NCBI GenBank assembly: GCA_963815215.1
Contig: CAWFFU010000011.1
Coordinates: 416,001-480,000, forward strand
From: an uncultured Trueperaceae bacterium
GTDB taxonomy: Bacteria; Deinococcota; Deinococci; Deinococcales; Trueperaceae
Reading direction: 5' to 3'
Length of the DNA: 64,000 bases
The first letter of the stretch is position 1. The number at the start of each line of letters is the position of its first letter. The notes beneath the pieces were generated by a model that saw only the letters and a program-made list of their open reading frames with translations, had not been told where the DNA came from and did no database searches. Made by a program: the position numbers and the translations under genes. This document shows, one piece after another, positions 42,814-54,131 of this stretch.

Positions 42814-44111
42814 GCGACCTCCACCTGACCCGTCCGACCGAGGCGGCGTCCGTAACGCAACCGAAGCGCCCACGGGTGCGGGTCCAGCCCCGTGAGGTGC
42901 TGGCCATCGCCTGGCGCAGCATCCGCGCCAACGTCATGCGCAGCGTCCTCACGACCATCGGGGTCGTGATCGGGGTCGCCGCTGTAGTCGCCCTCACCTC
43001 CATCGGGGCCGGCGTCACGGCGAGGATCACGAGCAGCATCGCCAGCCTCGGCACCAATCTCCTAACGGTCCAGAGTGGCTCCGCCGGGTTCCACCCGGGG
43101 CTCGTACGTAGCGCGCCGACCCAGAGGGTCACCGTCGGCGACGCTGAGGCCATCGTGGCGCTGAACGATCCGCGCGCCGCGGGCATCGCCCCGGTGGCGC
43201 AGACCAGCACCCAGGTCAAGGCGGGCGCCAACAACCTCAACGCCACCGTGCTGGGAACGTGGGCCAGTTACGCCGATGTGCGCAACAGCCAACCCGAGAC
43301 CGGCACCTTCTTCAGCACGCTCGACGTCGATAACCGCAACCGCGTCGCCGTCATCGGCTCCGACATCGCCAGCGAGCTCTTCCCGGGTCGAGCGGCGGTC
43401 GGTTCCACGCTGCAGATCAAGGGCGTGTCCTACGAGGTGGTAGGGGTCCTGCCCGACAAGGGCAACAGCTTCGGAAGCACCAACGACAGCGTGCTCATCC
43501 CGCTCTCCACCTTCCTGCAACGTGTCCATCGCGATTCGCTGCTCGGCTCCACGACCCTGTCCGCCATCTACGTCGAGGCCACCAGTCCCGACACCATCGA
43601 CGGTCTCCAGAGCCAGCTGACCCAGCTCATCGCCGGCCGCCACGGGACGCTGAGCGCGAGCGAGTACGACTTCCGGATCCAGAACCAGACCGACAGCTTG
43701 GAATCGCTCAACAGCGTGACCCGGACGCTCACCCTCTTCCTCGGCGCGATCGCGGGCATCAGCCTGCTGGTCGGAGGCATCGGAATCATGAACATCATGC
43801 TGGTATCGGTCACCGAGCGCACGCGTGAGATCGGTGTCCGCAAGGCCCTCGGGGCGAAGCCGCGGCACATCCTGGCGCAGTTCCTGACCGAGTCCATCGT
43901 GCTGTCGGTCGGTGGCGGCGTGCTCGGCGTCGCGCTCGGGCTCGCCATCGCCCTGCTGATCGTCCCCCACTTCGGGATCACTGCGGTCCCGTCGATGGGA
44001 AGCGCGCTGATGGCGTTCGCGTTCGCGGTCACGGTCGGTGTGTTCTTCGGCTACTACCCGGCCCGCCGCGCCGCCGCACTCGATCCCGTGGCCTCCCTGA
44101 GGTACGAGTGA
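42810..44111 (+). CDS. ABC permease (MacB/FtsX type)
   Basis: RSVLTTIGVVIG, GGIGIMNIMLVSVTERTREIG, LDPVASLRYE. Confidence 0.94.
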   Translation: MSDLHLTRPTEAASVTQPKRPRVRVQPREVLAIAWRSIRANVMRSVLTTIGVVIGVAAVVALTSIGAGVTARITSSIASLGTNLLTVQSGSAGFHPGLVRSAPTQRVTVGDAEAIVALNDPRAAGIAPVAQTSTQVKAGANNLNATVLGTWASYADVRNSQPETGTFFSTLDVDNRNRVAVIGSDIASELFPGRAAVGSTLQIKGVSYEVVGVLPDKGNSFGSTNDSVLIPLSTFLQRVHRDSLLGSTTLSAIYVEATSPDTIDGLQSQLTQLIAGRHGTLSASEYDFRIQNQTDSLESLNSVTRTLTLFLGAIAGISLLVGGIGIMNIMLVSVTERTREIGVRKALGAKPRHILAQFLTESIVLSVGGGVLGVALGLAIALLIVPHFGITAVPSMGSALMAFAFAVTVGVFFGYYPARRAAALDPVASLRYE

Positions 44112-45511
44112 TGCGTGTCCTCCCGGTCCTCCTCGCCACAGCCGCCCTCCTGACGGCCGCGCTTGCGGCCGCCCAGGGAACGGCAGGCGGAACCGACGCC
44201 ACCACCACGACGGCCGCACCGACGACCGCACCGACCGGTGAGGCGCGGTCCGCCACCGGCGCCAACCTGACCTTCGAGCAGGCCCTGCGATCGGCGATGA
44301 GCGCACCCGACGTGCAGAGCGCCGAGGCCGGCCTCACCATCGCCCGCAGCCGGCTGGCGGCGCGCACCGCCACCGTTCAGGGCAACGTCTCGGTCGACGC
44401 CGGTTCGAGCTGGGACCTCGCCAACGGCGGGAACACGCTCTCCGCCAGCGTCGGCGCCAACGCGACGTTCAACGTGCTGCCCTACGGCCCCTCCCAGGAC
44501 GCGCTCGACCGGGCGCAGGCCAGCGTGACCCGTGCGCAAGCCGCGCTGCGCTCGACGACCGGCGCCACCGTGGTCGCGGTGGCCACCGAGTACCTGACCG
44601 CGCTGCGGGCCGACCAGCAGGTCACCGTGCAGCAGGAGGCGCTGGCCCTGGCCCAGGCGAAGCTGCAGGCCGAGCAGGCCCGCAACCAGGCGGGCGCCGC
44701 CAGCGACGCCGACGTGCTGGCCGCCCAGCTCGATGTCGCCGGCGCCGCCGACGATCTCGCCAGTGCCCAGCGCAGCGCGCGTCGGGCCCTCTCAGCCCTC
44801 TCCCAGACGCTCGGCGTGCAGGTCGGCGCCGCGGACGGGGGAACCGGCGCCGCGATCGACGCCGCGGCACTGACCGCCGACGCCGACCTGTCCAAACGCA
44901 ACGACGTCATCGGCGCCACCCTCGACGTCGCGTCGGCCCGGCTCGACCTCCAGGGAGCCCGGCGCGACGCCGGGATCAGCCTCGACACCGCGCTCAGTTT
45001 CAGCGGCTCGACCGACACCACAGGCGTCAAGCTCTCGGCCGGATTCGACACCGCCAGCTTCCAGCCCACGGTCGGGGCCACGGTGAGCGTCACTACCGGT
45101 GGCAGCGCCTCCAGCTCGCTGAGCGCGGGCGTGGGGCTCAGCATCCCCATCGACGGCGGCAGCGGCGCCACCCTCGCCGCCTACCAGACGGCGCTCGAGC
45201 TCGCCAACGCGCAACTGGTGCGTACCCGCGACGCCGCCTCGGTCGACGTCGCCGACGCCCGGCGCAACCTCGAGGGCGAGGCCCAACAGCTGAGCCTGCA
45301 GGAGCAGCTCGCGGCTCAGGCCGAAACCATCCTCGAGCAGACACGACAGCGCTTCGAGCTGGGCCTCGTCTCCGTTCTCGACGTCCAGACCGCCAGCCTC
45401 TCGCTCCACCAGGCCCAGCTCGCCCGGGATCGTTCCGGCGACGCCGTGCTCATCGCCGGGGTCCAGCTCGCCCAGGCCATGGCCCTCGACCCCATGGAGG
45501 TCCTCAAGTGA
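44108..45511 (+). CDS. TolC-like outer membrane efflux protein 1
   Basis: Signal peptide, alternating helical repeats and beta-strand segments, RFELGLVSVLDV; coupled to the permease gene. Confidence 0.75.
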   Translation: MMRVLPVLLATAALLTAALAAAQGTAGGTDATTTTAAPTTAPTGEARSATGANLTFEQALRSAMSAPDVQSAEAGLTIARSRLAARTATVQGNVSVDAGSSWDLANGGNTLSASVGANATFNVLPYGPSQDALDRAQASVTRAQAALRSTTGATVVAVATEYLTALRADQQVTVQQEALALAQAKLQAEQARNQAGAASDADVLAAQLDVAGAADDLASAQRSARRALSALSQTLGVQVGAADGGTGAAIDAAALTADADLSKRNDVIGATLDVASARLDLQGARRDAGISLDTALSFSGSTDTTGVKLSAGFDTASFQPTVGATVSVTTGGSASSSLSAGVGLSIPIDGGSGATLAAYQTALELANAQLVRTRDAASVDVADARRNLEGEAQQLSLQEQLAAQAETILEQTRQRFELGLVSVLDVQTASLSLHQAQLARDRSGDAVLIAGVQLAQAMALDPMEVLK

Positions 45512-46575
45512 ACCGCTCCACCCCACCCCTGCTCGCCCTCGCGCTCGCCGCCATTCTCGGCATCGCGGGCACCGTCACGGCTCAGAGCGCCCCCGCCGCC
45601 CAGGGCGCGGCCACCACCTCGGACGCGCAGGCGATCTCACTGACCCAGACGCTCTCCGCCGCAGTCGAGCGCGCAGCGGACGTCATCACCGCCCGCAGCA
45701 CGCTGCAGGCGGCCCAACGCACGCTCGAGCGAACCCAGGCGGACCCGCTCGCCCTGAAGGTCGGTCTCCTCACCGCACAGAATGCCGCAGCCCAGGCCCA
45801 GCAGGTACTCGCCACGGCCGAGGCGACGGTACGCAAGAGCGCGGCCCAGGCGTACACCGCGCTGATCGAGGCCGACACGGCCCGCGCCGAGGCGCGCGAG
45901 GCCGAGGCCATCGCGAGCGCCAAGCTCGAAGCCACGCAGGCCAAGCAGGATGCAGGCGCCGCCACCTCGATCGACGTGGCCGAGGCCAAGGACACACTGG
46001 CATCGGCCCAGCGCGACAGCCGTGAAGCGGCGACCGACTACGATCTCGCTCTGAGCGAGCTGCAGACACAGACGGGCCTGGACGCCGGCGCCCTGATCGC
46101 CCTCAGCCCGTCGGATCTCCCGGCCGTTCCGAGCCTAGAGGACGCGCTCCGCGAAGCCCGCGGCTCCAGCGCCTCCCTCCAGGGAGCCACGCGCAAGCTC
46201 GCGCTGGCCCAGGCCCAGCTCGCCGCCGTCGACAACGCCTTCAGCGCCGCCTCGGACATCGAATCCGCCCGTGACGATGTTGCCGCCGCCAGAACCGCCC
46301 TCGACGCCGCCGCCTCCAACGTCGATGTGACGGTGGGCCAGGCGTTCGCCGGCGTCACCGCCGCCCAGCACCGCTACACGAGCGCGCAGGAGAGCCTCGC
46401 CACGTCCTCCGAGGACCTCGCCGCGCAGAAGGCCCGATCCGACGCCGGCACCCTCGCGCCGCTCGCCTATCAGGAGGTCCGCTTGAGCCACGCCAGGACG
46501 GTGGCTTCGGCCGCCACCACCCTCCACGACTGGATCCTGGCCGCCTTCGACCTGCAGCTCGCCATCCTGAAGTGA
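45508..46575 (+). CDS. TolC-like outer membrane efflux protein 2 (mostly helical)
   Basis: Signal peptide, two OEP-like repeats (DAGAATSIDV, DAGTLAPL). Confidence 0.7.
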   Translation: MNRSTPPLLALALAAILGIAGTVTAQSAPAAQGAATTSDAQAISLTQTLSAAVERAADVITARSTLQAAQRTLERTQADPLALKVGLLTAQNAAAQAQQVLATAEATVRKSAAQAYTALIEADTARAEAREAEAIASAKLEATQAKQDAGAATSIDVAEAKDTLASAQRDSREAATDYDLALSELQTQTGLDAGALIALSPSDLPAVPSLEDALREARGSSASLQGATRKLALAQAQLAAVDNAFSAASDIESARDDVAAARTALDAAASNVDVTVGQAFAGVTAAQHRYTSAQESLATSSEDLAAQKARSDAGTLAPLAYQEVRLSHARTVASAATTLHDWILAAFDLQLAILK

Positions 46576-48117: not shown

Positions 48118-48143
48118 ATTAGGTTATATACTAATGTCCTTAG
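48118..48143. promoter_or_regulatory. AT-rich promoter/operator of the hydrolase-TetR pair
   Basis: ATTAG...CTAAT and CTAA...TTAG inverted repeats directly before the ATG. Confidence 0.55.
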
Positions 48144-48164
48144 TTCGTCAACCCCTCCATGCCC

Positions 48165-48520
48165 CGCTCCTGGTCGGCATACCGACCCTGGCCGACCAAC
48201 GCCTGACGCAGGGGGCGCTGGCTTTCGGCCTGCTCATGCCCGCGTTCTCGGGCGGCAACCTGATCGGCTACCTGCTGGCCGGATCGCTGCCCCGCATCGC
48301 CGGCAGGGCCAGGCCGATCCTGATCGCCGCGCTCTTCGCGGCCTTCGGAACGGTCATCGGATCGCTCGGCTTCATCGCGTCCACCTGGGTCGACTTCGGT
48401 CCGCTGTTCGGGCTAGGGGTGGGCAACGGTTACGTCGCCATCCTGCTGTACACGTGGGTGCAGACGCGTACGCCCAGGGCCATGCCGGGGCGCATGATGA
48501 GCATCCTGATGCTCGCCGGC
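48165..48520 (+). pseudogene. Internal fragment of an MFS transporter
   Basis: About four TM segments and QTRTPRAMPGRMMS; homology ends at a 12-bp tandem duplication (48517-48540). Confidence 0.7.
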
Positions 48521-48770
48521 ACCGACCGCGGCACCGACCGCGGTCGGAACGAGCGAAGCGTGAACCTGTGGGGCTCACGCGCGTGCAGAGCGCTCCTGCA
48601 GCAGGGCAATCGTCCCTGCCGGGGCCGGTGGCAGGCGCCTACCATCGAGGGCACGGCATGGCCGAGAACCCGGGCTTCGCAGCTCCGCGGTCGCGATCAC
48701 GGAGGACCTCGAGCCCGCTCCCGGCCCCACACCGGCGCGCATGCGCACGGGCACGACGCGTCCGCGGATC

Positions 48771-48875
48771 GGGCTTCAGCTCGCGCTGCTCGACCTGGCA
48801 TTCGGAGTGACCTTCGAGCGCGCCCGTAACCTCGTCGTTCCCTCCGTGGCCCACGTGCCGGTGAACGGCCTCGAT
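48771..48875 (+). pseudogene. C-terminal remnant of a CPBP protease
   Basis: LAFGVTFERARNLVVPSVAHVPVN resembles the final HxxxN motif of the family. Confidence 0.5.
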
Positions 48876-48925
48876 TGTGTTCCGCGGCCGCAGGCCGCGC
48901 AACCGGGAGAAGGGGTACCGACTTC

Positions 48926-49483
48926 ATGGACGCTCACGCGCTGGGTCTGCTCGATATCGTGATCCGCACCGTCGCGGCGCACACCGTGACCTACACCGTG
49001 GTCGGCATCGCCGCCATGAACGTCTTCCGCTACACCCGGGCCCTCCGGGAAGACCCCGTGCGTCGGGCGACGCTGCGTGACACCTCCAACCCGTGGGTGA
49101 TGGCCGGTCCGCTCCTCCAACCGCTTCGCGGCGCGCTCTTCGGGCTCGTCTTCTACCTGCTCAGGGACACGCTCTTCGCCCCGAACGGCTGGCTCGTCCT
49201 GTGGGTCATGCTCGTCTCCGTCGGCATCCTCGGCACCTTCGCCCCGGCCCCCTCCTCCATCGAGGGCTGGATCTACCTCGAGCGCTCCGCGAGCGGCCCT
49301 CTCTGGGGCGGCCTCGTCGAGATCCTGACCCAGTCGTTGTTGCTGTCCGTGGTGAGCTTCCTGTGGATCACGAACCCGGCTGCCGCGTGGCTCGATTGGG
49401 TCCTGGGGGTCCTCTTCGTGCTGACGTTGGCGATGCCCGCCCTGGGCCTGGTGGCGGCGCGCGCCGCGCGCCGTTCAGCGTAG
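48926..49483 (+). CDS. Hypothetical membrane protein (about 5 TM)
   Basis: Hydrophobic segments, GC-rich third positions, GPLLQPLRG and PAPSSIEGWIY motifs. Confidence 0.8.
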   Translation: MDAHALGLLDIVIRTVAAHTVTYTVVGIAAMNVFRYTRALREDPVRRATLRDTSNPWVMAGPLLQPLRGALFGLVFYLLRDTLFAPNGWLVLWVMLVSVGILGTFAPAPSSIEGWIYLERSASGPLWGGLVEILTQSLLLSVVSFLWITNPAAAWLDWVLGVLFVLTLAMPALGLVAARAARRSA

Positions 49484-49668
49484 AAGGGCCGGGAGCGTCC
49501 CGGGGCGCCCACGGCAGACCGCTCCGGCCGATCCCGACGCACCCGACCCGATCGCCAGGCTCCCATCGCCCGGCCAGGCGCCCCGGCCCTGAGGGCCAAA
49601 CGCCATCTCGCTTCCGGTGCGCCGAACCTCTACACTACGGGCGGAGCGGCCGTCGAGGGAGTCCCACC

Positions 49669-50850
49669 ATGGCGGACGTCGGAGCAACCCCCCTGCAGTA
49701 TCTCGACAGGGCCCTGGGAACGGTCCGCGAGCTCGGCCTGATGCCCGAGCACAGCGGCGACCAGGAAGCGCCCATCACGGCTCTGCTGAAGCGGATCAGC
49801 AGCCTCGACGAGGCGAAGGTGGTCGTGATCGCCCGCACGCTCGACCAGGCGTCGCTGTTCAACGACGTCGTGCGCGAGCAGGTGGGCGCCAGCGACATCG
49901 CCACCCGCTACGAGACCATCACCCACGCCTTCAACAGCATCCGCGACGACGCCAAACGCATGGTGGACCAGATCGAGGACGGCAAGATCACCACTTTCGA
50001 GCGCCTCGCCAACGTCTGGATGAAGGTGACCCGCGGCGACGTCGCCTCCCGCTTCGACACCATCAAGCGCAGCTTCCTCGAGGTCACGCGGTCCACGCTG
50101 GATCAGGTCGAGCGTGAGCGGCGCATCCTCGAGGCCTACCAGGACTTCCGAGGGGCGTTGAAGGAGGCCGAGATCCTGGCGCTGGAGGTGCTGAAGGCCG
50201 CCGACGCGGAGCTGGCCGGCGCCCGGCAGGCGGTCGCCGATGCCGCCGACCATGTGACGGCCGCCCCGGCGGACGACCTGACGGAGCGGGCGCGGCGCGA
50301 GCTGGCGCGCGACGAGCGCGTGCGGGCGCTCCAGACGTCGGAGGCGCGCTACCAGATCGCCAAGGACCTGTCCGACAACCTGACCGTCGCCTACCACACC
50401 TCCGAGGTCATCATGACCCGGCTGCTGCAGACCACCAACGCCAAAGAACGCGTGCACGCGCAGTCGGTCAGCTTCTTCTCCACCAACGAGACCGTCCTCA
50501 CGGCGCTCAGCGCCTCGTTCACCGGCATGTTCGGCCTGCACGAGAGCACCCGCACCATCGAAGCGATGAAGGAAGGGGTCGGCAAGTCGCTCGAGGACCT
50601 CGCAGAGGTCGGCGGTCAGGTGCAGGAAGCGGCCCTCCGGGCCGGCTACGGGCCGACGATCCGCGCCGAAGCCGTGAAGAAGCTGGTCGAGTCGGTGGTG
50701 GCCTACCAGACGCACGCACGCGAGATCATCGAGGAGATGCGCGCGAAGAGCACGGCGAACGCGCGTGAGATCCGGGAGGCGGTGGAGGACGGCAAGCGCC
50801 GCCTGGCGCGCCTGGCCGAGCAGGGCGAGGCGTCCGCGCCGACGGCATGA
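49669..50850 (+). CDS. Uncharacterised all-helical coiled-coil protein (TelA-like size and composition)
   Basis: 393 aa, GAGGGAG SD, heptad-rich, no signal peptide; stop overlaps the next ATG. Confidence 0.8.
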   Translation: MADVGATPLQYLDRALGTVRELGLMPEHSGDQEAPITALLKRISSLDEAKVVVIARTLDQASLFNDVVREQVGASDIATRYETITHAFNSIRDDAKRMVDQIEDGKITTFERLANVWMKVTRGDVASRFDTIKRSFLEVTRSTLDQVERERRILEAYQDFRGALKEAEILALEVLKAADAELAGARQAVADAADHVTAAPADDLTERARRELARDERVRALQTSEARYQIAKDLSDNLTVAYHTSEVIMTRLLQTTNAKERVHAQSVSFFSTNETVLTALSASFTGMFGLHESTRTIEAMKEGVGKSLEDLAEVGGQVQEAALRAGYGPTIRAEAVKKLVESVVAYQTHAREIIEEMRAKSTANAREIREAVEDGKRRLARLAEQGEASAPTA

Positions 50851-51752
50851 CGGAAGCGCCCGCCACCCGGGCCGGGGCCCCGCTCGACGACATCATGCTC
50901 GCCATGGACGTGGTGGACACGCTGCGCCAGCGACGCCAGCTGGTGGAGCAGGAACTCGACGAGCCGGCGCGCGCCCAGGACCTCATCGAGCGTCTGCGGA
51001 AGATCTACGCCGCACAGGGGATCGAGGTTCCCGACGACATCCTGGCGCAGGGCGTGGCCGCCCTGGCGCAGGAACGCTTCGTCCATCGACCGACACCGCC
51101 GTCGCTCGCGACCGCGCTCGCCAGGATCTACGTCACGCGGCGCCGGTGGGGCGCATGGCTGGTCGCCTGCCTGGCGCTGGCCGCCGTGACGTACGGCGCC
51201 TATCGGACCGAGGTCGTCGCCCCGCGCGCCGCGCTGTCTGGGGAGCTGACGGCCGCGCACGCCGCGGTCCTGCGGCTCGCGGCCGTACCGGAAGCCACCG
51301 ATCGCGCCGACACCCTCTACGACGCGGCGCGCACGGCCCTGGGACAGCGCAGCTATGCGGCGGCCCGGGCCGGTCTGGCCGACCTTCAGGCGCTCACGGC
51401 GACGCTCGAGCAGACCTACACCGTGCGCGTGGTCAACCGTCCCGGCCAGCCGTCGGGAGTCTGGCGAATCCCCGACGTGAACCCCACGGCACGGAACTAC
51501 TACCTCATCGTCGAGGCCCGGGGGCCCGACGGGACCTCCGTGACGGCCACCGTACGCAACGAGGAGACCGGCGACAGCGTGCCGGTCGAGCGATGGGGCG
51601 TTCGCGTCGACGAGGCCACCTTCCAGGCCGTGGCACGGGATAAGCAGGACGACGGCATCATCCAGGCCGACATCGTCGGCCTCAAGCGCCGCGGCGCACT
51701 GGACCCCAGCTACACCATCCCCACCACCGGAGCGGCCATCACGCACTGGTAG
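50847..51752 (+). CDS. DUF6384-like single-pass membrane protein
   Basis: LDDIMLAMDVVDTLR N-terminus recalled as typical of this family; one TM (WGAWLVACLALAAVTYGAY); C-terminal RNYYLIVEA, WGVRV, AITHW. Confidence 0.75.
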   Translation: MTEAPATRAGAPLDDIMLAMDVVDTLRQRRQLVEQELDEPARAQDLIERLRKIYAAQGIEVPDDILAQGVAALAQERFVHRPTPPSLATALARIYVTRRRWGAWLVACLALAAVTYGAYRTEVVAPRAALSGELTAAHAAVLRLAAVPEATDRADTLYDAARTALGQRSYAAARAGLADLQALTATLEQTYTVRVVNRPGQPSGVWRIPDVNPTARNYYLIVEARGPDGTSVTATVRNEETGDSVPVERWGVRVDEATFQAVARDKQDDGIIQADIVGLKRRGALDPSYTIPTTGAAITHW

Positions 51753-51771
51753 CGCTCGGAACGGACACGGC

Positions 51772-53187
51772 ATGATCTCGGGACGACAACCCCTGGCCTC
51801 CATCGAAACGGAGGTCGAAAGCGAGCGCAAGGCCAATGAGGAACTGGACCGTCGCGTGGCCGAGGGCAGTGCACGCCTCATGGAGGTCGGCAAGGCGCAG
51901 ACGGCTGCCTACCGCGAGCTGGCCCGGCTGCGCGTCGGCTCGCTGGCAGCCGGGACCGTCACCGAGACGCTCGACGCCGCCGAACAGCGGGTGAGCGCAC
52001 TGTTGCGCAGCCGCGAGGCCGCCACCGAGGCGCTGGCCGACGAACTACGCACCGCCGACGAGGACCGCTCCGCGCTGGAGGCCCAGCGCGCAACGCAGGC
52101 TAGGACCCTGGAACAGGCCGCCGCCGCTGTCGACGCCGCCGAGGCGCGCACGCAGGAGCGCCTCACAGCGCAGCCGGCCTACCGCTCGCAGCTCGATCGC
52201 GCCGAGAAGCTCGACCGCATCGCGAAGCACGCCGAGGAGAAAGCCACGCGGAGCGAGCAGGAGCTGGACGAGAAGGGGCGGGCGTACCGAGAGGACCCCC
52301 TGTTCATGTACCTGTGGAAGCGGCGCTTCGGGACGTCGGACTACCGGGCCGCCCCGCTGTTCCGCTGGCTCGACGGGAAGGTAGCGCTCCTGGTGGGCTA
52401 TGCGGAGCCCCGGGCCGACTACGCCCGCCTCCTGGAGATCCCCGTGCGCCTCCGGGAGCACGCCACCGCGTCCCGCCGACGCGCCGACGTCGAACTCGAC
52501 GAGCTCGCCGAGCTCGACCGGAGAGCGCGCGCTGCCGACGGCATCCCTGCCCTCGAGTCGATCGCAGCGGAGGAGGCGCGGCGGCTCGAGACCCTGGACC
52601 GGGGGCTCGAGCAACGGGCCGCGGCGGTCCAGACGCTGCTCGATCGCAGACAGCGGTTCGCGGCCGGTGAAGACGACGCCTACCGCGAGGCGATCGACGT
52701 CCTCGCCGCCGGTCTGCGCACCGAGCAGCTCCAGGCCCTGCGCCAGGAGGCGCTGGCGACCCCCTTCCCCGAGGATGACGTGGCCATCGGACGTCTGATC
52801 GACCTGCAACAGGAACAGCATCGTCTCGAGACCGCTGCACAGGAGCTCACCGCGGCGTTGCAGCAGCATCGCGACCGCCTCCGTCAGCTCGAGTCGCTCG
52901 GCTCGGAGTTCAGGCGGCGTCAGTACGACCTGCCCGGGCACGGCTTCCAGGACGGCGCCCTGGTCGCGACTGTGCTGGCCAACGTCATCGGCGGGATGCT
53001 CTCCCGCGATGCGCTGTGGCGCGTGCTGGAGCAACAGCGCCGCTACGCCCCGCCGCGGTCCAACCCGACGTTCGGTTCCGGCGGCTTCGGCCGGGGCTCA
53101 CCCTGGGCCGGTGGGCACGGCCCACGCGGGGGCGGCGGCCATGGCGGCGGTCATGGCGGCGGGTTCCGTACCGGCGGCAAGTTCTGA
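51772..53187 (+). CDS. Long coiled-coil protein with Gly-rich tail
   Basis: Heptad repeats, central DPLFMYLWKRRFGT motif, amphipathic LVATVLANVIGGML, tail GGGFRTGGKF. Confidence 0.8.
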   Translation: MISGRQPLASIETEVESERKANEELDRRVAEGSARLMEVGKAQTAAYRELARLRVGSLAAGTVTETLDAAEQRVSALLRSREAATEALADELRTADEDRSALEAQRATQARTLEQAAAAVDAAEARTQERLTAQPAYRSQLDRAEKLDRIAKHAEEKATRSEQELDEKGRAYREDPLFMYLWKRRFGTSDYRAAPLFRWLDGKVALLVGYAEPRADYARLLEIPVRLREHATASRRRADVELDELAELDRRARAADGIPALESIAAEEARRLETLDRGLEQRAAAVQTLLDRRQRFAAGEDDAYREAIDVLAAGLRTEQLQALRQEALATPFPEDDVAIGRLIDLQQEQHRLETAAQELTAALQQHRDRLRQLESLGSEFRRRQYDLPGHGFQDGALVATVLANVIGGMLSRDALWRVLEQQRRYAPPRSNPTFGSGGFGRGSPWAGGHGPRGGGGHGGGHGGGFRTGGKF

Positions 53188-53453
53188 ACGCGCACCTGCT
53201 CCTGCGACCTTGACGTAGCGCGATCGAGCGCGACTGAGGGCGACCGAGCGCGACCGGCGCGCACAGGACGACCGGCCGCGGCCCTCATCGTCCTCCCACC
53301 CATCCTGCACGGTCCTTGCACCTGGCCTCCACCGCTTCCTCGAATCCGACGCCTACCCTCGGAGGCATCGGGAGGCGCCCGGAGCAACCGCCGGGTGAAC
53401 CCCGCACGGCCCCCGCCCCAGCGACCCGCGGTGCGGCCAGGAAGGGAAGGACC

Positions 53454-54131
53454 ATGACCACGATCACCCCCCATCTGAAGCGAGCCACTGTCCGGTTCGG
53501 TACGACGCTTGCCGTGGCTCTCGCGCTCGGCCTAGGACTGGCGTTCGCACAGCCCAGCATCGCCATCGGCAACCTGACGATGCAGAGCGGAACCATGGCG
53601 TCCTACCTCACGAACAGCGCCACCGGCGGCACCACCGGCCTATGCTTCCATAACAGCACCGGCAGCGGCAGCACCAGCTACGCCTGCTTCGAACGTGCTC
53701 TGAGGGTCAGCGGACTCGGCGCCATGGTGAACGGTTCGAAGCCGGTCACCGTCTTCGCGCCCACCGACGCGGCCTTCGCCCACCTCGAGGACACCGTCGG
53801 CGTCGGCGCATTCCAACGCTTCATGGCCAGCCCGACGGCTATGGCCGCCTTCGTCAGGAGCTCGATCGTGAACGGTACCATCACCGTCAACGACCTCGCC
53901 TACCACGCTCCCATCGCGACGGCCGCGACCTCCGTCACCACGGTGGCCGGGACGCCGCTCGCCGTCTCCTTCGGCTCGGTCGGCTACGGCACCTCGAGCA
54001 CTACGGTCGACGTCGGCCCTTCGGGCGCGGTCGACGGCCAGAGCTTCGTCATCGGGACCACCGTCATGTTCGCCGACGGTAGCGCACTGATCCCGCTCGG
54101 CCGCATCACCCTCACCTCCTTGGGCGCCTAG
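53454..54131 (+). CDS. Secreted fasciclin (FAS1) domain protein
   Basis: Signal peptide ending AFA; H1 motif PVTVFAPTDAAF. Confidence 0.75.
   Translation: MTTITPHLKRATVRFGTTLAVALALGLGLAFAQPSIAIGNLTMQSGTMASYLTNSATGGTTGLCFHNSTGSGSTSYACFERALRVSGLGAMVNGSKPVTVFAPTDAAFAHLEDTVGVGAFQRFMASPTAMAAFVRSSIVNGTITVNDLAYHAPIATAATSVTTVAGTPLAVSFGSVGYGTSSTTVDVGPSGAVDGQSFVIGTTVMFADGSALIPLGRITLTSLGA

Follow-up and report, generated by a model that had tools for sequence, protein, structure and literature searches.

Proteins of the TelA/KlaB/YaaN family (PF05816) are usually encoded together with a small membrane protein, and some ClyA-family toxins are encoded as three-gene operons. The PspA–PspBC, LiaIH, and Vipp1 systems share a concept in which single-pass anchors bring soluble coiled coils to the inner membrane and none of the components is an enzyme. 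In Listeria, according to a review passage, TelA is connected with antimicrobials that act on the envelope (PMC11765107). Here, we describe a locus of three genes, designated g1, g2, and g3 and collectively the trio, in a 64,000-nucleotide stretch of DNA (the window) from an uncultured Trueperaceae bacterium (assembly GCA_963815215.1, contig CAWFFU010000011.1, positions 416,001–480,000). The trio is a self-contained, strongly conserved unit found in several phyla, and its recurrence lies far beyond chance; it is catalogued only as one domain of unknown function (DUF6384, in g2) and two unnamed families. The trio is encoded by the following open reading frames (ORFs), as translated from the window.

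49669–50850, forward strand: g1, an ORF of 393 amino acids
50847–51752, forward strand: g2, an ORF of 301 amino acids
51772–53187, forward strand: g3, an ORF of 471 amino acids

The stop codon of g1 overlaps the start codon of g2 in the sequence ATGA at 50847–50850, and g2 and g3 are separated by 19 nucleotides (nt; 51753–51771). Because of this overlap and short gap, we consider the three genes to be translationally coupled in the window. The boundaries, overlap, and gap agree in full with those of an initial annotation of this DNA.

Comparison with the described systems reveals both likenesses and differences. As in the TelA family, g1 is ≈390 residues long, modeled as all-helical, nonenzymatic, and encoded beside a membrane protein. 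What sets the trio apart from TelA-type pairs is that the partner is a predicted bitopic DUF6384 protein with a large, putatively external domain, and that an obligatory third protein, a coiled coil, is joined to the helical, TelA-shaped protein and its membrane partner. With the ClyA family, the g1 model shares an elongated bundle of two very long antiparallel helices with a distal segment, such that 191 to 274 residues can be aligned at a sequence identity of 4 to 11%. The trio differs from these toxins in that its proteins are not paralogous, one of them is an integral membrane anchor, and the carriers are environmental bacteria. The likeness to PspA–PspBC, LiaIH, and Vipp1 is one of concept.

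At least 573 species-representative genomes encode a relative of g2, and the best 80 of these at least 573 stretches (one genome per species) were analyzed as loci by tblastn. A relative of g1 is found immediately 5′ of g2 in 78 of the 80 loci and a relative of g3 immediately 3′ in 79, with strand and order unchanged throughout. The misses fall at contig ends: the two loci that lack g1 (L037 and L080) lie on contigs starting within or just before g2, and the contig of the one locus that lacks g3 (L045) ends just after g2. In four further loci g1 is partial, limited to what the contig holds. In 31 of the 78 loci that allowed both ends to be located, g1 and g2 again overlap by 4 nt. The same picture emerges when one class is sampled evenly (401 genomes): DUF6384 is encoded in 12 genomes (3%), with an adjoining g1 in all 12 and an adjoining g3 in 11, the 12th being cut by a contig end. 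The initial expectation that similar trios occur in other phyla is thus upheld, since order and strand are the same in 80 of 80 loci and the three genes are conserved together.

The genes that surround the trio are not conserved. The commonest flanking family is found in 8 of the 80 loci, in a clustering of naive ORF calls that include antisense shadow ORFs and in which the three trio families merged into one cluster. Pfam analysis of 115 flanking ORFs from 31 loci returned metabolic, transport, and regulatory genes, with no recurrent defense genes among them and none in the window, and with no recurrent secretion-system genes beside the trio in the same ORFs. PADLOC-DB 2.0 gave best E values of 0.0011 to 0.23 to unrelated models (Cas6e, ZorA, JetC) in coiled-coil regions, which we regard as noise. 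With no PADLOC match and with housekeeping neighbors in the window and in the 31 other loci, the association with defense islands raised earlier is not seen.

The product of g2 is a full-length member of DUF6384 (PF19911; E = 3.5e-113, 378.2 bits against a cut-off of 25, profile positions 3–308 of 308), so that the initial label "DUF6384-type" was correct. The Pfam entry describes one protein of unknown function and does not record the obligatory g1 and g3 partners, and the names DUF6384 and PF19911 were not found in the literature searched. DUF6384 is single-copy in the window's genome, as judged from a genome search, and 1823 relatives of g2 were found among 8000 candidates scored. For g1 and g3, no family of Pfam, NCBIfam, PADLOC, or PHROGs was matched beyond noise, and in PHROGs g2 was likewise without a match. 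No catalytic family was matched in Pfam or NCBIfam, in keeping with the reported absence of enzymatic motifs, and no characterized complex was matched in the family libraries or in fold searches.

The most conserved member of the trio is g1, with 64 to 81% identity to the window protein across phyla in 78 of the 80 loci and a mean column identity of 71% across phyla (72 sequences). A profile search of 1.84 billion representatives with g1 retrieved 698 clusters (50% identity) at E ≤ 1e-3, with 266 of these at E ≤ 1e-30. None of 120 g1 relatives among the matches listed carries a precomputed Pfam domain, and they are named "hypothetical protein" or "cell surface protein" in their source records. 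The identity of 64 to 81% between phyla makes us certain, on the strength of these alignments, that g1 is under strong functional constraint, and a column identity of 71% across phyla fits a protein with many contact surfaces.

Sequence conservation and hydropathy divide g2 into four regions, three of which are listed here; the fourth, a helical stalk, is described below.

50880–51131, forward strand: residues 12–95 of g2, a conserved N-terminal helical domain and the proposed docking site for g3, with invariant columns that include M17–T25 and I53–V61
51147–51203, forward strand: residues 101–119 of g2, a single transmembrane helix with RRR on its N-terminal side (Kyte–Doolittle maximum over 19 residues of 1.43, at residue 101)
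51375–51749, forward strand: residues 177–301 of g2, a conserved C-terminal domain that ends in an invariant Trp (invariant columns Y191–W301)

The single transmembrane segment claimed for g2 is confirmed as one hydrophobic stretch, residues 101–119, and the positive-inside rule predicts a bitopic protein in the N-in/C-out orientation with a cytoplasmic N terminus. A helical stalk lies between the transmembrane helix and the C-terminal domain, and its length differs among relatives. Stalk insertions of ≈120 residues are found in the DUF6384 proteins of one genome (G456; loci L109 and L111), and an insertion of ≈74 residues, repeat-like in character, is found in another sequence of the DUF6384 alignment (P0096). 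The DUF6384 protein is 440 residues long in its phage form (L094:7226–8545) and 476 residues long in its plasmid form (L095:8127–9557). A look at DUF6384 fusions returned one longer protein (547 residues) and no fusion to g1 or g3, which is weak evidence. Finally, Dolichospermum phage Dfl-JY45 (209 kb) encodes a 442-residue protein (L097:4020–5345) that harbors the C-terminal DUF6384 domain only, following a different N terminus; across 125 residues, it is 45% identical to this domain of g2 (E = 1e-28). The next gene in Dfl-JY45 is not g3-like, and no relative of g1 was found in that phage. From this single phage protein, the putative external domain of DUF6384 appears also to travel alone.

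A structural model of g1 is all-helical (pLDDT 73, pTM 0.67), with helices at residues 125–198 (74 residues), 204–289 (86 residues), and 333–388 (56 residues), and contains two regions of particular note.

50041–50535, forward strand: residues 125–289 of g1, two very long antiparallel helices that form the bundle core (DSSP on the model, block pLDDT 84–96)
50521–50661, forward strand: residues 285–331 of g1, a nearly invariant, Gly-containing segment that is not hydrophobic (pLDDT <50)

The hydropathy profile of g1 is that of a soluble protein, with a maximum 19-residue Kyte–Doolittle value of 1.03 and no window above 1.2. Invariant residues in g1 are G286, G289, L290, E292, T294, M300, K301, G303, S307, G315, E320, A322, and G326–P329. 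The order of the helices in the model suggests that residues 285–331 would be equivalent to the head of ClyA. None of the three proteins has a signal-like N terminus, and g1 and g3 lack an N-terminal hydrophobic segment by hydropathy. No paralogy between g1 and g3 is detectable by hhalign (probability 0.8%).

The model of g3 consists of long helices (pLDDT 87). Its fold matches are generic coiled coils, such as the arms of SMC, Rad50, and MukB and the chemoreceptors, and a Foldseek search of the PDB returned nothing at E ≤ 0.001. Among 72 members of the g3 family, no Pfam family was matched by more than one member. The conserved features of g3 are as follows.

52285–52464, forward strand: residues 172–231 of g3, a nearly invariant aromatic core (alignment columns DPLFMYLW..R..G...Y ... 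RWLDGKVA ... EIP.RLREHA)
52945–53013, forward strand: residues 392–414 of g3, a hydrophobic or amphipathic helix (19-residue Kyte–Doolittle value of 1.38; helix at 395–406 in the model)
53065–53184, forward strand: residues 432–471 of g3, a Gly-rich, disordered tail with conserved aromatic residues, ending in FRTGGKF (pLDDT <50)

The invariant or near-invariant residues of the core are F178, Y180, L181, W182, R184, Y191, R198, L200, D201, L220, P224, and L227, and the core motif is also the region that aligns with the megaplasmid and phage homologues discussed below. In the tail, P432, F434, G435, S436, G437, G440–G442, W445, F465, T467–G469, and F471 are nearly invariant, with a family consensus at the very end of FRTGGGF versus FRTGGKF in the window. 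The alignment, hydropathy, and translation bear out each of the features first described for g3, i.e., the aromatic central motif, the amphipathic helix, and the Gly-rich FRTGGKF tail. The helix at residues 392–414 may be in contact with the membrane. In an alphaproteobacterial bin, the g3 ORF is 184 residues long (L076:6899–7453) and the central motif alone aligns, at 62% identity over residues 167–231; this g3 may be truncated or frameshifted.

We also predicted a complex of g1, g3, and residues 1–125 of g2, with the g2 fragment (g2N) as the scored partner and three controls. The prediction gives weak support, with a score of 0.36 versus 0.01 for the best control. In the accompanying benchmark, the mark was reached by 116 of the 157 solved complexes tried and, among 215 mismatched pairs, by 2; scores of 0.60 or lower account for 18 of the 157 solved complexes and for both of the passing mismatches. 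At least 90% of contacts are the same from run to run, and the partner pLDDT is at least 73. When g3 is replaced and g2N kept, the score falls to 0.01, which hints that g2N makes its modeled contact with g3. We treat this pairing as a lead, not as a demonstration.

The carriers of the trio are mostly free-living sulfur oxidizers, Trueperaceae, and sulfate reducers from sediments. They include Deinococcota (Trueperaceae, Deinococcales), many Gammaproteobacteria (Chromatiaceae, Ectothiorhodospiraceae, Sedimenticolaceae, Competibacteraceae), Desulfobulbaceae, Alphaproteobacteria, and bins assigned to Pirellulales, to Omnitrophota, and, by label, to Bdellovibrio. Close to the window's genome, seven of nine further genomes from the genus and 20 of 60 from the family encode DUF6384; among 40 genomes from the order's other four families, none has it above the cut-off. 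A maximum-likelihood tree was built from the three concatenated proteins (64 rows, omitting 16 of the 80 loci, each with an ORF that was incomplete or of unusual length). In this tree, the Deinococcota fall into a single clade (support 98) that is embedded among those of Gammaproteobacteria, and the Thermodesulfobacteriota likewise group in one clade. The phylum labels require 4 changes on the tree versus 15.3 when shuffled. These counts speak against a mobile element in the course of recent spread, an alternative that we considered and rejected, as transfers between phyla are few and old. By these clades and label changes, the trio is an accessory unit that has made few moves between phyla and otherwise passes down by vertical inheritance.

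Relatives of g1 are also found in 11 plasmid records of 0.32 to 1.39 Mb (seven from Pseudomonas and one each from Microvirga, Bradyrhizobium, Methylorubrum extorquens AM1, and Rhizobium), and g2 adjoins g1 in 10 of the 11. On an IncP megaplasmid of Pseudomonas aeruginosa, the three genes are annotated as "merozoite surface protein 3b," "DUF6384 family protein" (476 residues), and hypothetical protein. The last of these can be aligned with g3 across 293 residues (E = 1e-9) and carries a Gly-rich tail like that of g3. The Yersinia jumbo phage phiR1-37 (262 kb) encodes a recognizable trio: g190 matches g1 at 38% identity across 98% of its length (E = 1e-75), g191 harbors both terminal domains of g2 (E = 2e-12 and 0.001; the C-terminal domain is 30% identical), and g192 aligns weakly with the core motif of g3 (E = 0.022). 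A passage of one source on this phage describes multisubunit RNA polymerases and no chimallin homologue (10.1101/2023.02.24.529968). In IMG/VR viral contigs, profile patterns of g1 found no relative and g190 found phiR1-37 itself only, by a pattern method that reaches close relatives only.

Published transcriptome data are available for phiR1-37 (Leskinen et al. 2016, Table S2; PMC4848604). The mean total gene reads in the early, middle, and late phases, which are not length-normalized as far as the table shows, are 32,683, 39,000, and 41,993 for g190; 13,922, 14,582, and 16,006 for g191; and 16,261, 20,881, and 24,416 for g192. The pattern of all three genes is given as "NO," that is, no temporal class, and none is labeled a virion protein. 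By middle-phase reads, g190 ranks 8th of 367 phage genes, below g144, g283, g304, g305, g326, g331, and g332. The most-read genes of this phage are the adjacent g304 (AAA_5 ATPase; ≈300,000 mean reads) and g305 (DUF2201; ≈130,000), across all stages. The three genes are not mentioned in the main text of that paper, and no literature was found on the phiR1-37 homologues of the trio, the toxic-protein screens of phiR1-37 included. As for the bacterial trio, contigs from a salt-marsh metatranscriptome run cover parts of g1, g2, and g3 at 85 to 99% identity. Of 15 contig pieces, one matches at ≥99%, four at 95 to 99%, five at 90 to 95%, and five at <90%, and because of this spread the contigs derive from the same organism or from close relatives. 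These contigs, assembled from an RNA library in which DNA carry-over is possible, suggest that the bacterial trio is transcribed.

Turning to the window itself, g1 is preceded by a Shine–Dalgarno-like sequence.

49655–49661, forward strand: GAGGGAG, a Shine–Dalgarno-like sequence 7 nt 5′ of the g1 ATG, as read from the sequence

Alignments of homologues begin at residue 1, which supports 49669 as the g1 start. The intergenic region between the preceding ORF and g1 is 185 nt long, ≈260 nt separate g3 from the next ORF, and the G+C content of the trio region (≈70%) is like that of its surroundings. A consensus scan of 49300–53500, limited to these two pattern types, found no sigma-70 promoter and no intrinsic terminator, where shuffled sequence gives means of 0.1 promoters and 1.0 terminators. 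Genes 5′ of the trio encode a MacB-type permease and two OEP proteins, a TetR regulator, a hydrolase, a major facilitator superfamily (MFS) remnant, and a small membrane protein without a family; genes 3′ encode a fasciclin-domain protein, Fpg/Nei, a PEP synthase regulator, and PEP synthase. The two successive OEP/TolC-like genes (44108–46575, forward strand) follow the permease gene, each overlapping the preceding gene by 4 nt, and the second is short (355 residues) and covers half of the OEP profile only. The MFS remnant (48134–48829, forward strand; 231 residues) matches the C-terminal third of MFS transporters only (MFS_1 profile positions 222–339 of 347, E = 5e-7) and may be a truncated or frameshifted transporter gene just 5′ of the trio. 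Directly 5′ of the trio is the gene for a 202-residue hydrophobic protein (48875–49483, forward strand) that belongs to no Pfam family and is not kept beside the trio in other genomes.

We propose, tentatively and with somewhat less than even confidence, that the trio is an inner-membrane-anchored scaffold whose anchor extends into the periplasm and which functions in membrane stabilization or remodeling. A nonenzymatic, structural role is suggested because no catalytic family is matched and because g1 is conserved at 71%, and a link to the membrane because g2 has a single transmembrane helix flanked by RRR and g3 a hydrophobic helix. In such a scaffold, the three genes would encode one nonenzymatic assembly on the cytoplasmic face of the inner membrane. 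The anchor would be g2: its conserved N-domain would lie in the cytoplasm, a single transmembrane helix would lead to a periplasmic stalk that differs in length among relatives, and its highly conserved C-terminal domain would touch a common component of the envelope. The cytoplasmic N-domain of g2 would dock the long coiled coil of g3, with the hydrophobic helix and the Gly/aromatic tail of g3 placed at the membrane, and g1, an elongated bundle of the TelA/ClyA shape class, would join as a third and probably oligomeric subunit. The most likely job of this assembly would be to stabilize or remodel the cytoplasmic membrane under envelope stress, in a working mode like that of TelA–XpaC and PspA–PspBC and without membership in those families. 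The data show how the genes are arranged, that they are inherited together, to which families they can be assigned, and the fold class of the models; the topology, the binding partners, and the stress role in this proposal are what we infer from the features described above.

A number of findings weigh against a membrane-stabilizing scaffold of this kind. A stress promoter or regulator was not found in the sigma-70 consensus scan of 49300–53500. The neighbors vary and are envelope-related only occasionally, in a few of the 31 loci (MscS and DUF533 in L004, LemA in L017 and L032, BON–LysM in L025 and L036, YhdP in L032). For a stress-induced repair module, one would not predict the high and untimed expression that is seen in a lytic jumbo phage. 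The complex score is a weak pass, and unless the pairing was already likely on other grounds, most passes of this strength are wrong. Hydropathy reveals no hydrophobic stretch in g1 and nothing that would clearly insert into a membrane, and PspA_IM30 is not matched at E ≤ 1 by any of the three proteins in Pfam. The TelA model (PF05816) is not matched by g1 at E ≤ 1, short of the Pfam gathering score of 30 bits, nor by any of 15 divergent g1 relatives at E ≤ 0.1. An hhalign comparison of a narrow g1 profile with TelA returns a probability of 0.5%, and a broad g1 profile one of 3.6% (E = 0.012 over 93 colinear columns, residues 275–371 of g1 to 274–369 of TelA); the comparison set consisted of true TelA proteins from related genomes, an alignment of only 10 close sequences. 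Finally, Foldseek with g1 returned nothing at E ≤ 0.001 from the PDB or BFVD, with weak rows for AhlB, AhlC, SmhB, MakA, and YaxAB, and helical bundles can reach the Z scores that another fold search gives for g1 (see below) by shape alone.

The analogy with TelA that was drawn at the outset therefore stands in part. In its favor are the E value of 0.012 just mentioned, the finding that 25 of the 30 nearest Atlas clusters of g1 are in the set carrying PF05816 (52% of members in the best such cluster), and predicted models of phage TelA at ranks 13, 25, and 50 of the BFVD list for g1 (E = 0.036–0.15, TM 0.24–0.36). It fails on the Pfam model, the 15 divergent relatives, and both hhalign probabilities. 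These three weak and partly independent signals hint at a distant kinship of g1 and TelA, and family membership fails the sequence tests. Searches of solved structures, whether by the g1 sequence or by profiles of g1, g2, g3, and TelA, returned noise only, and no solved structure of TelA was found. The term "TelA-type module" may thus be applied to the trio as a statement on a possible working mode only, not on family membership. TelA is absent from the window's own genome (genome-wide search, E ≤ 10). In 36 other genomes of the family searched for both, TelA is found in 6, DUF6384 in 14, and both in none, where ≈2.3 would be expected by chance; among genomes that are themselves mutually related, this is a hint that the two modules substitute for each other. 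For the analogy with PspA and ESCRT-III, taken as homology, the searches returned no Pfam match (E ≤ 1) and no specific fold match, although absence from such lists does not exclude a family: no PspA or Vipp1 chain is found in the top 50 fold matches of g1 or g3, and the only ESCRT-III entry in the fold lists is a hairpin match of g3 to Shrub over 93 residues (Z = 9.6).

The closest shapes to g1 raise a rival explanation, namely that a ClyA-type g1 acts with g2 and g3 as a pore or lysis device that opens the inner membrane of the producer, either in abortive-infection defense or in timing the permeabilization of the cell by a phage. A Foldseek-independent fold search of g1 returned XaxA (Z = 13.6, 274 residues aligned, rmsd 5.6), ClyA (12.7, 234 aligned), YaxB (12.0), PaxB and AhlC (11.8), HblL1 (10.2), AhlB (10.0), Hbl-B (9.8), and MakE (8.7), although Z values under ≈13 may mean a common arrangement only, and the top row is a designed helical bundle at 13.7. 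ClyA-family chains thus fill much of the top of this list (Z = 8.7–13.6), and the weak Foldseek matches to ClyA-family proteins (E = 0.03–0.2), among them AhlB, AhlC, SmhB, and MakA, agree, as would a conserved and possibly conformation-changing segment at the position of the ClyA head. The accessory, patchy occurrence of the module (3% of one class, 20 of 60 genomes of the family) and its presence on plasmids and in a phage also suit a pore. Against these stand the absence from g1 of a hydrophobic head or β-tongue, given the maximum 19-residue hydropathy of 1.03 and no window above 1.2, and the lack of paralogy between g1 and g3, unlike in tripartite toxins. The tripartite alpha pore-forming toxins (AhlABC, SmhABC, Nhe, Hbl) are each built of three paralogues, whereas in the trio g1 and g3 give an hhalign probability of 0.8%, g2 is DUF6384, and g3 is a generic coiled coil. 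Moreover, there is no PADLOC match and no recurrent defense gene, either among the 115 flanking ORFs of 31 loci or in the window, an identity of 64 to 81% across phyla is unusual for defense or toxin proteins, and high expression of the phiR1-37 genes already early in infection fits poorly with a lethal pore. Of the initial analogy with ClyA and Hbl pores, a fold likeness of the g1 model (Z = 10–13.6) survives; the pore does not follow, in the face of no hydrophobic head, no paralogy of g1 and g3, and no signal-like N termini. The modeled g1 is best called ClyA-shaped and not a member of the ClyA family, and we regard a pore or lysis device as improbable.

A positioning role is, in our estimate, a slimmer possibility again. 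Here, the anchor would connect a coiled-coil lattice in the cytoplasm with the cell wall or the outer membrane, as an envelope-spanning scaffold that organizes a big replicon, a site of replication or assembly, or the cell pole. The carriers include 11 plasmids of 0.32 to 1.39 Mb and a 262-kb jumbo phage for which the cited passage describes no chimallin nucleus shell (10.1101/2023.02.24.529968); large replicons, however, carry many accessory genes anyway, and in most carriers the trio is chromosomal and lies among unrelated genes. Similarly, g3 is a long coiled coil whose best matches are the arms of SMC, Rad50, and MukB and which ends in an Arg/Gly/aromatic tail, but these matches are to generic coiled coils with poor rmsd, and no DNA-binding or ATPase domain is found with Pfam or NCBIfam. 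The periplasmic stalk of g2 varies in length as a spacer would, and expression in the phage is high and constant, both of which would fit. That the proteins are instead exported to act at the surface or on a host, with g2 as their export or attachment partner, we consider highly improbable. ClyA-family proteins can be exported without signal peptides, and some homologues bear source names such as "cell surface protein" and "merozoite surface protein 3b." These names are automatic labels on coiled-coil-rich proteins, however, and g1 and g3 lack an N-terminal hydrophobic segment, no recurrent secretion-system genes are found beside the trio, and the carriers are mostly free-living sulfur oxidizers, Trueperaceae, and sediment sulfate reducers. 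The remaining probability falls to functions other than those named here.

Returning to the membrane-stabilizing scaffold, a further-reaching version of it, which we think rather unlikely, would make the trio an undescribed class of envelope machinery. In this version, the TelA/ClyA-shaped g1 and the Gly-tailed g3 would form a submembrane lattice that DUF6384 clamps through the membrane to the cell wall or outer layers, and megaplasmids and a nucleus-less jumbo phage would have captured it because it protects or reorganizes the host membrane during long and demanding cycles of replication. It would then be a fourth kind of membrane maintenance beside PspA/Vipp1, flotillin/SPFH, and dynamin-like proteins.

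The frequency of the trio gives these questions weight, as it is found in at least 573 species-representative genomes, ≈3% of one class, and a third of the window's family. Furthermore, phiR1-37 invests heavily in it, with g190 ranking 8th of 367 genes in mid-infection, and this phage offers a direct experimental handle. Should the trio prove to be a membrane-maintenance or envelope-spanning scaffold, bacterial cell biology would gain a new player, and TelA-type proteins, themselves poorly understood, might gain a structural context; should it prove to be a pore or defense device, the ClyA shape would have been put to a new use within the cell that produces it.

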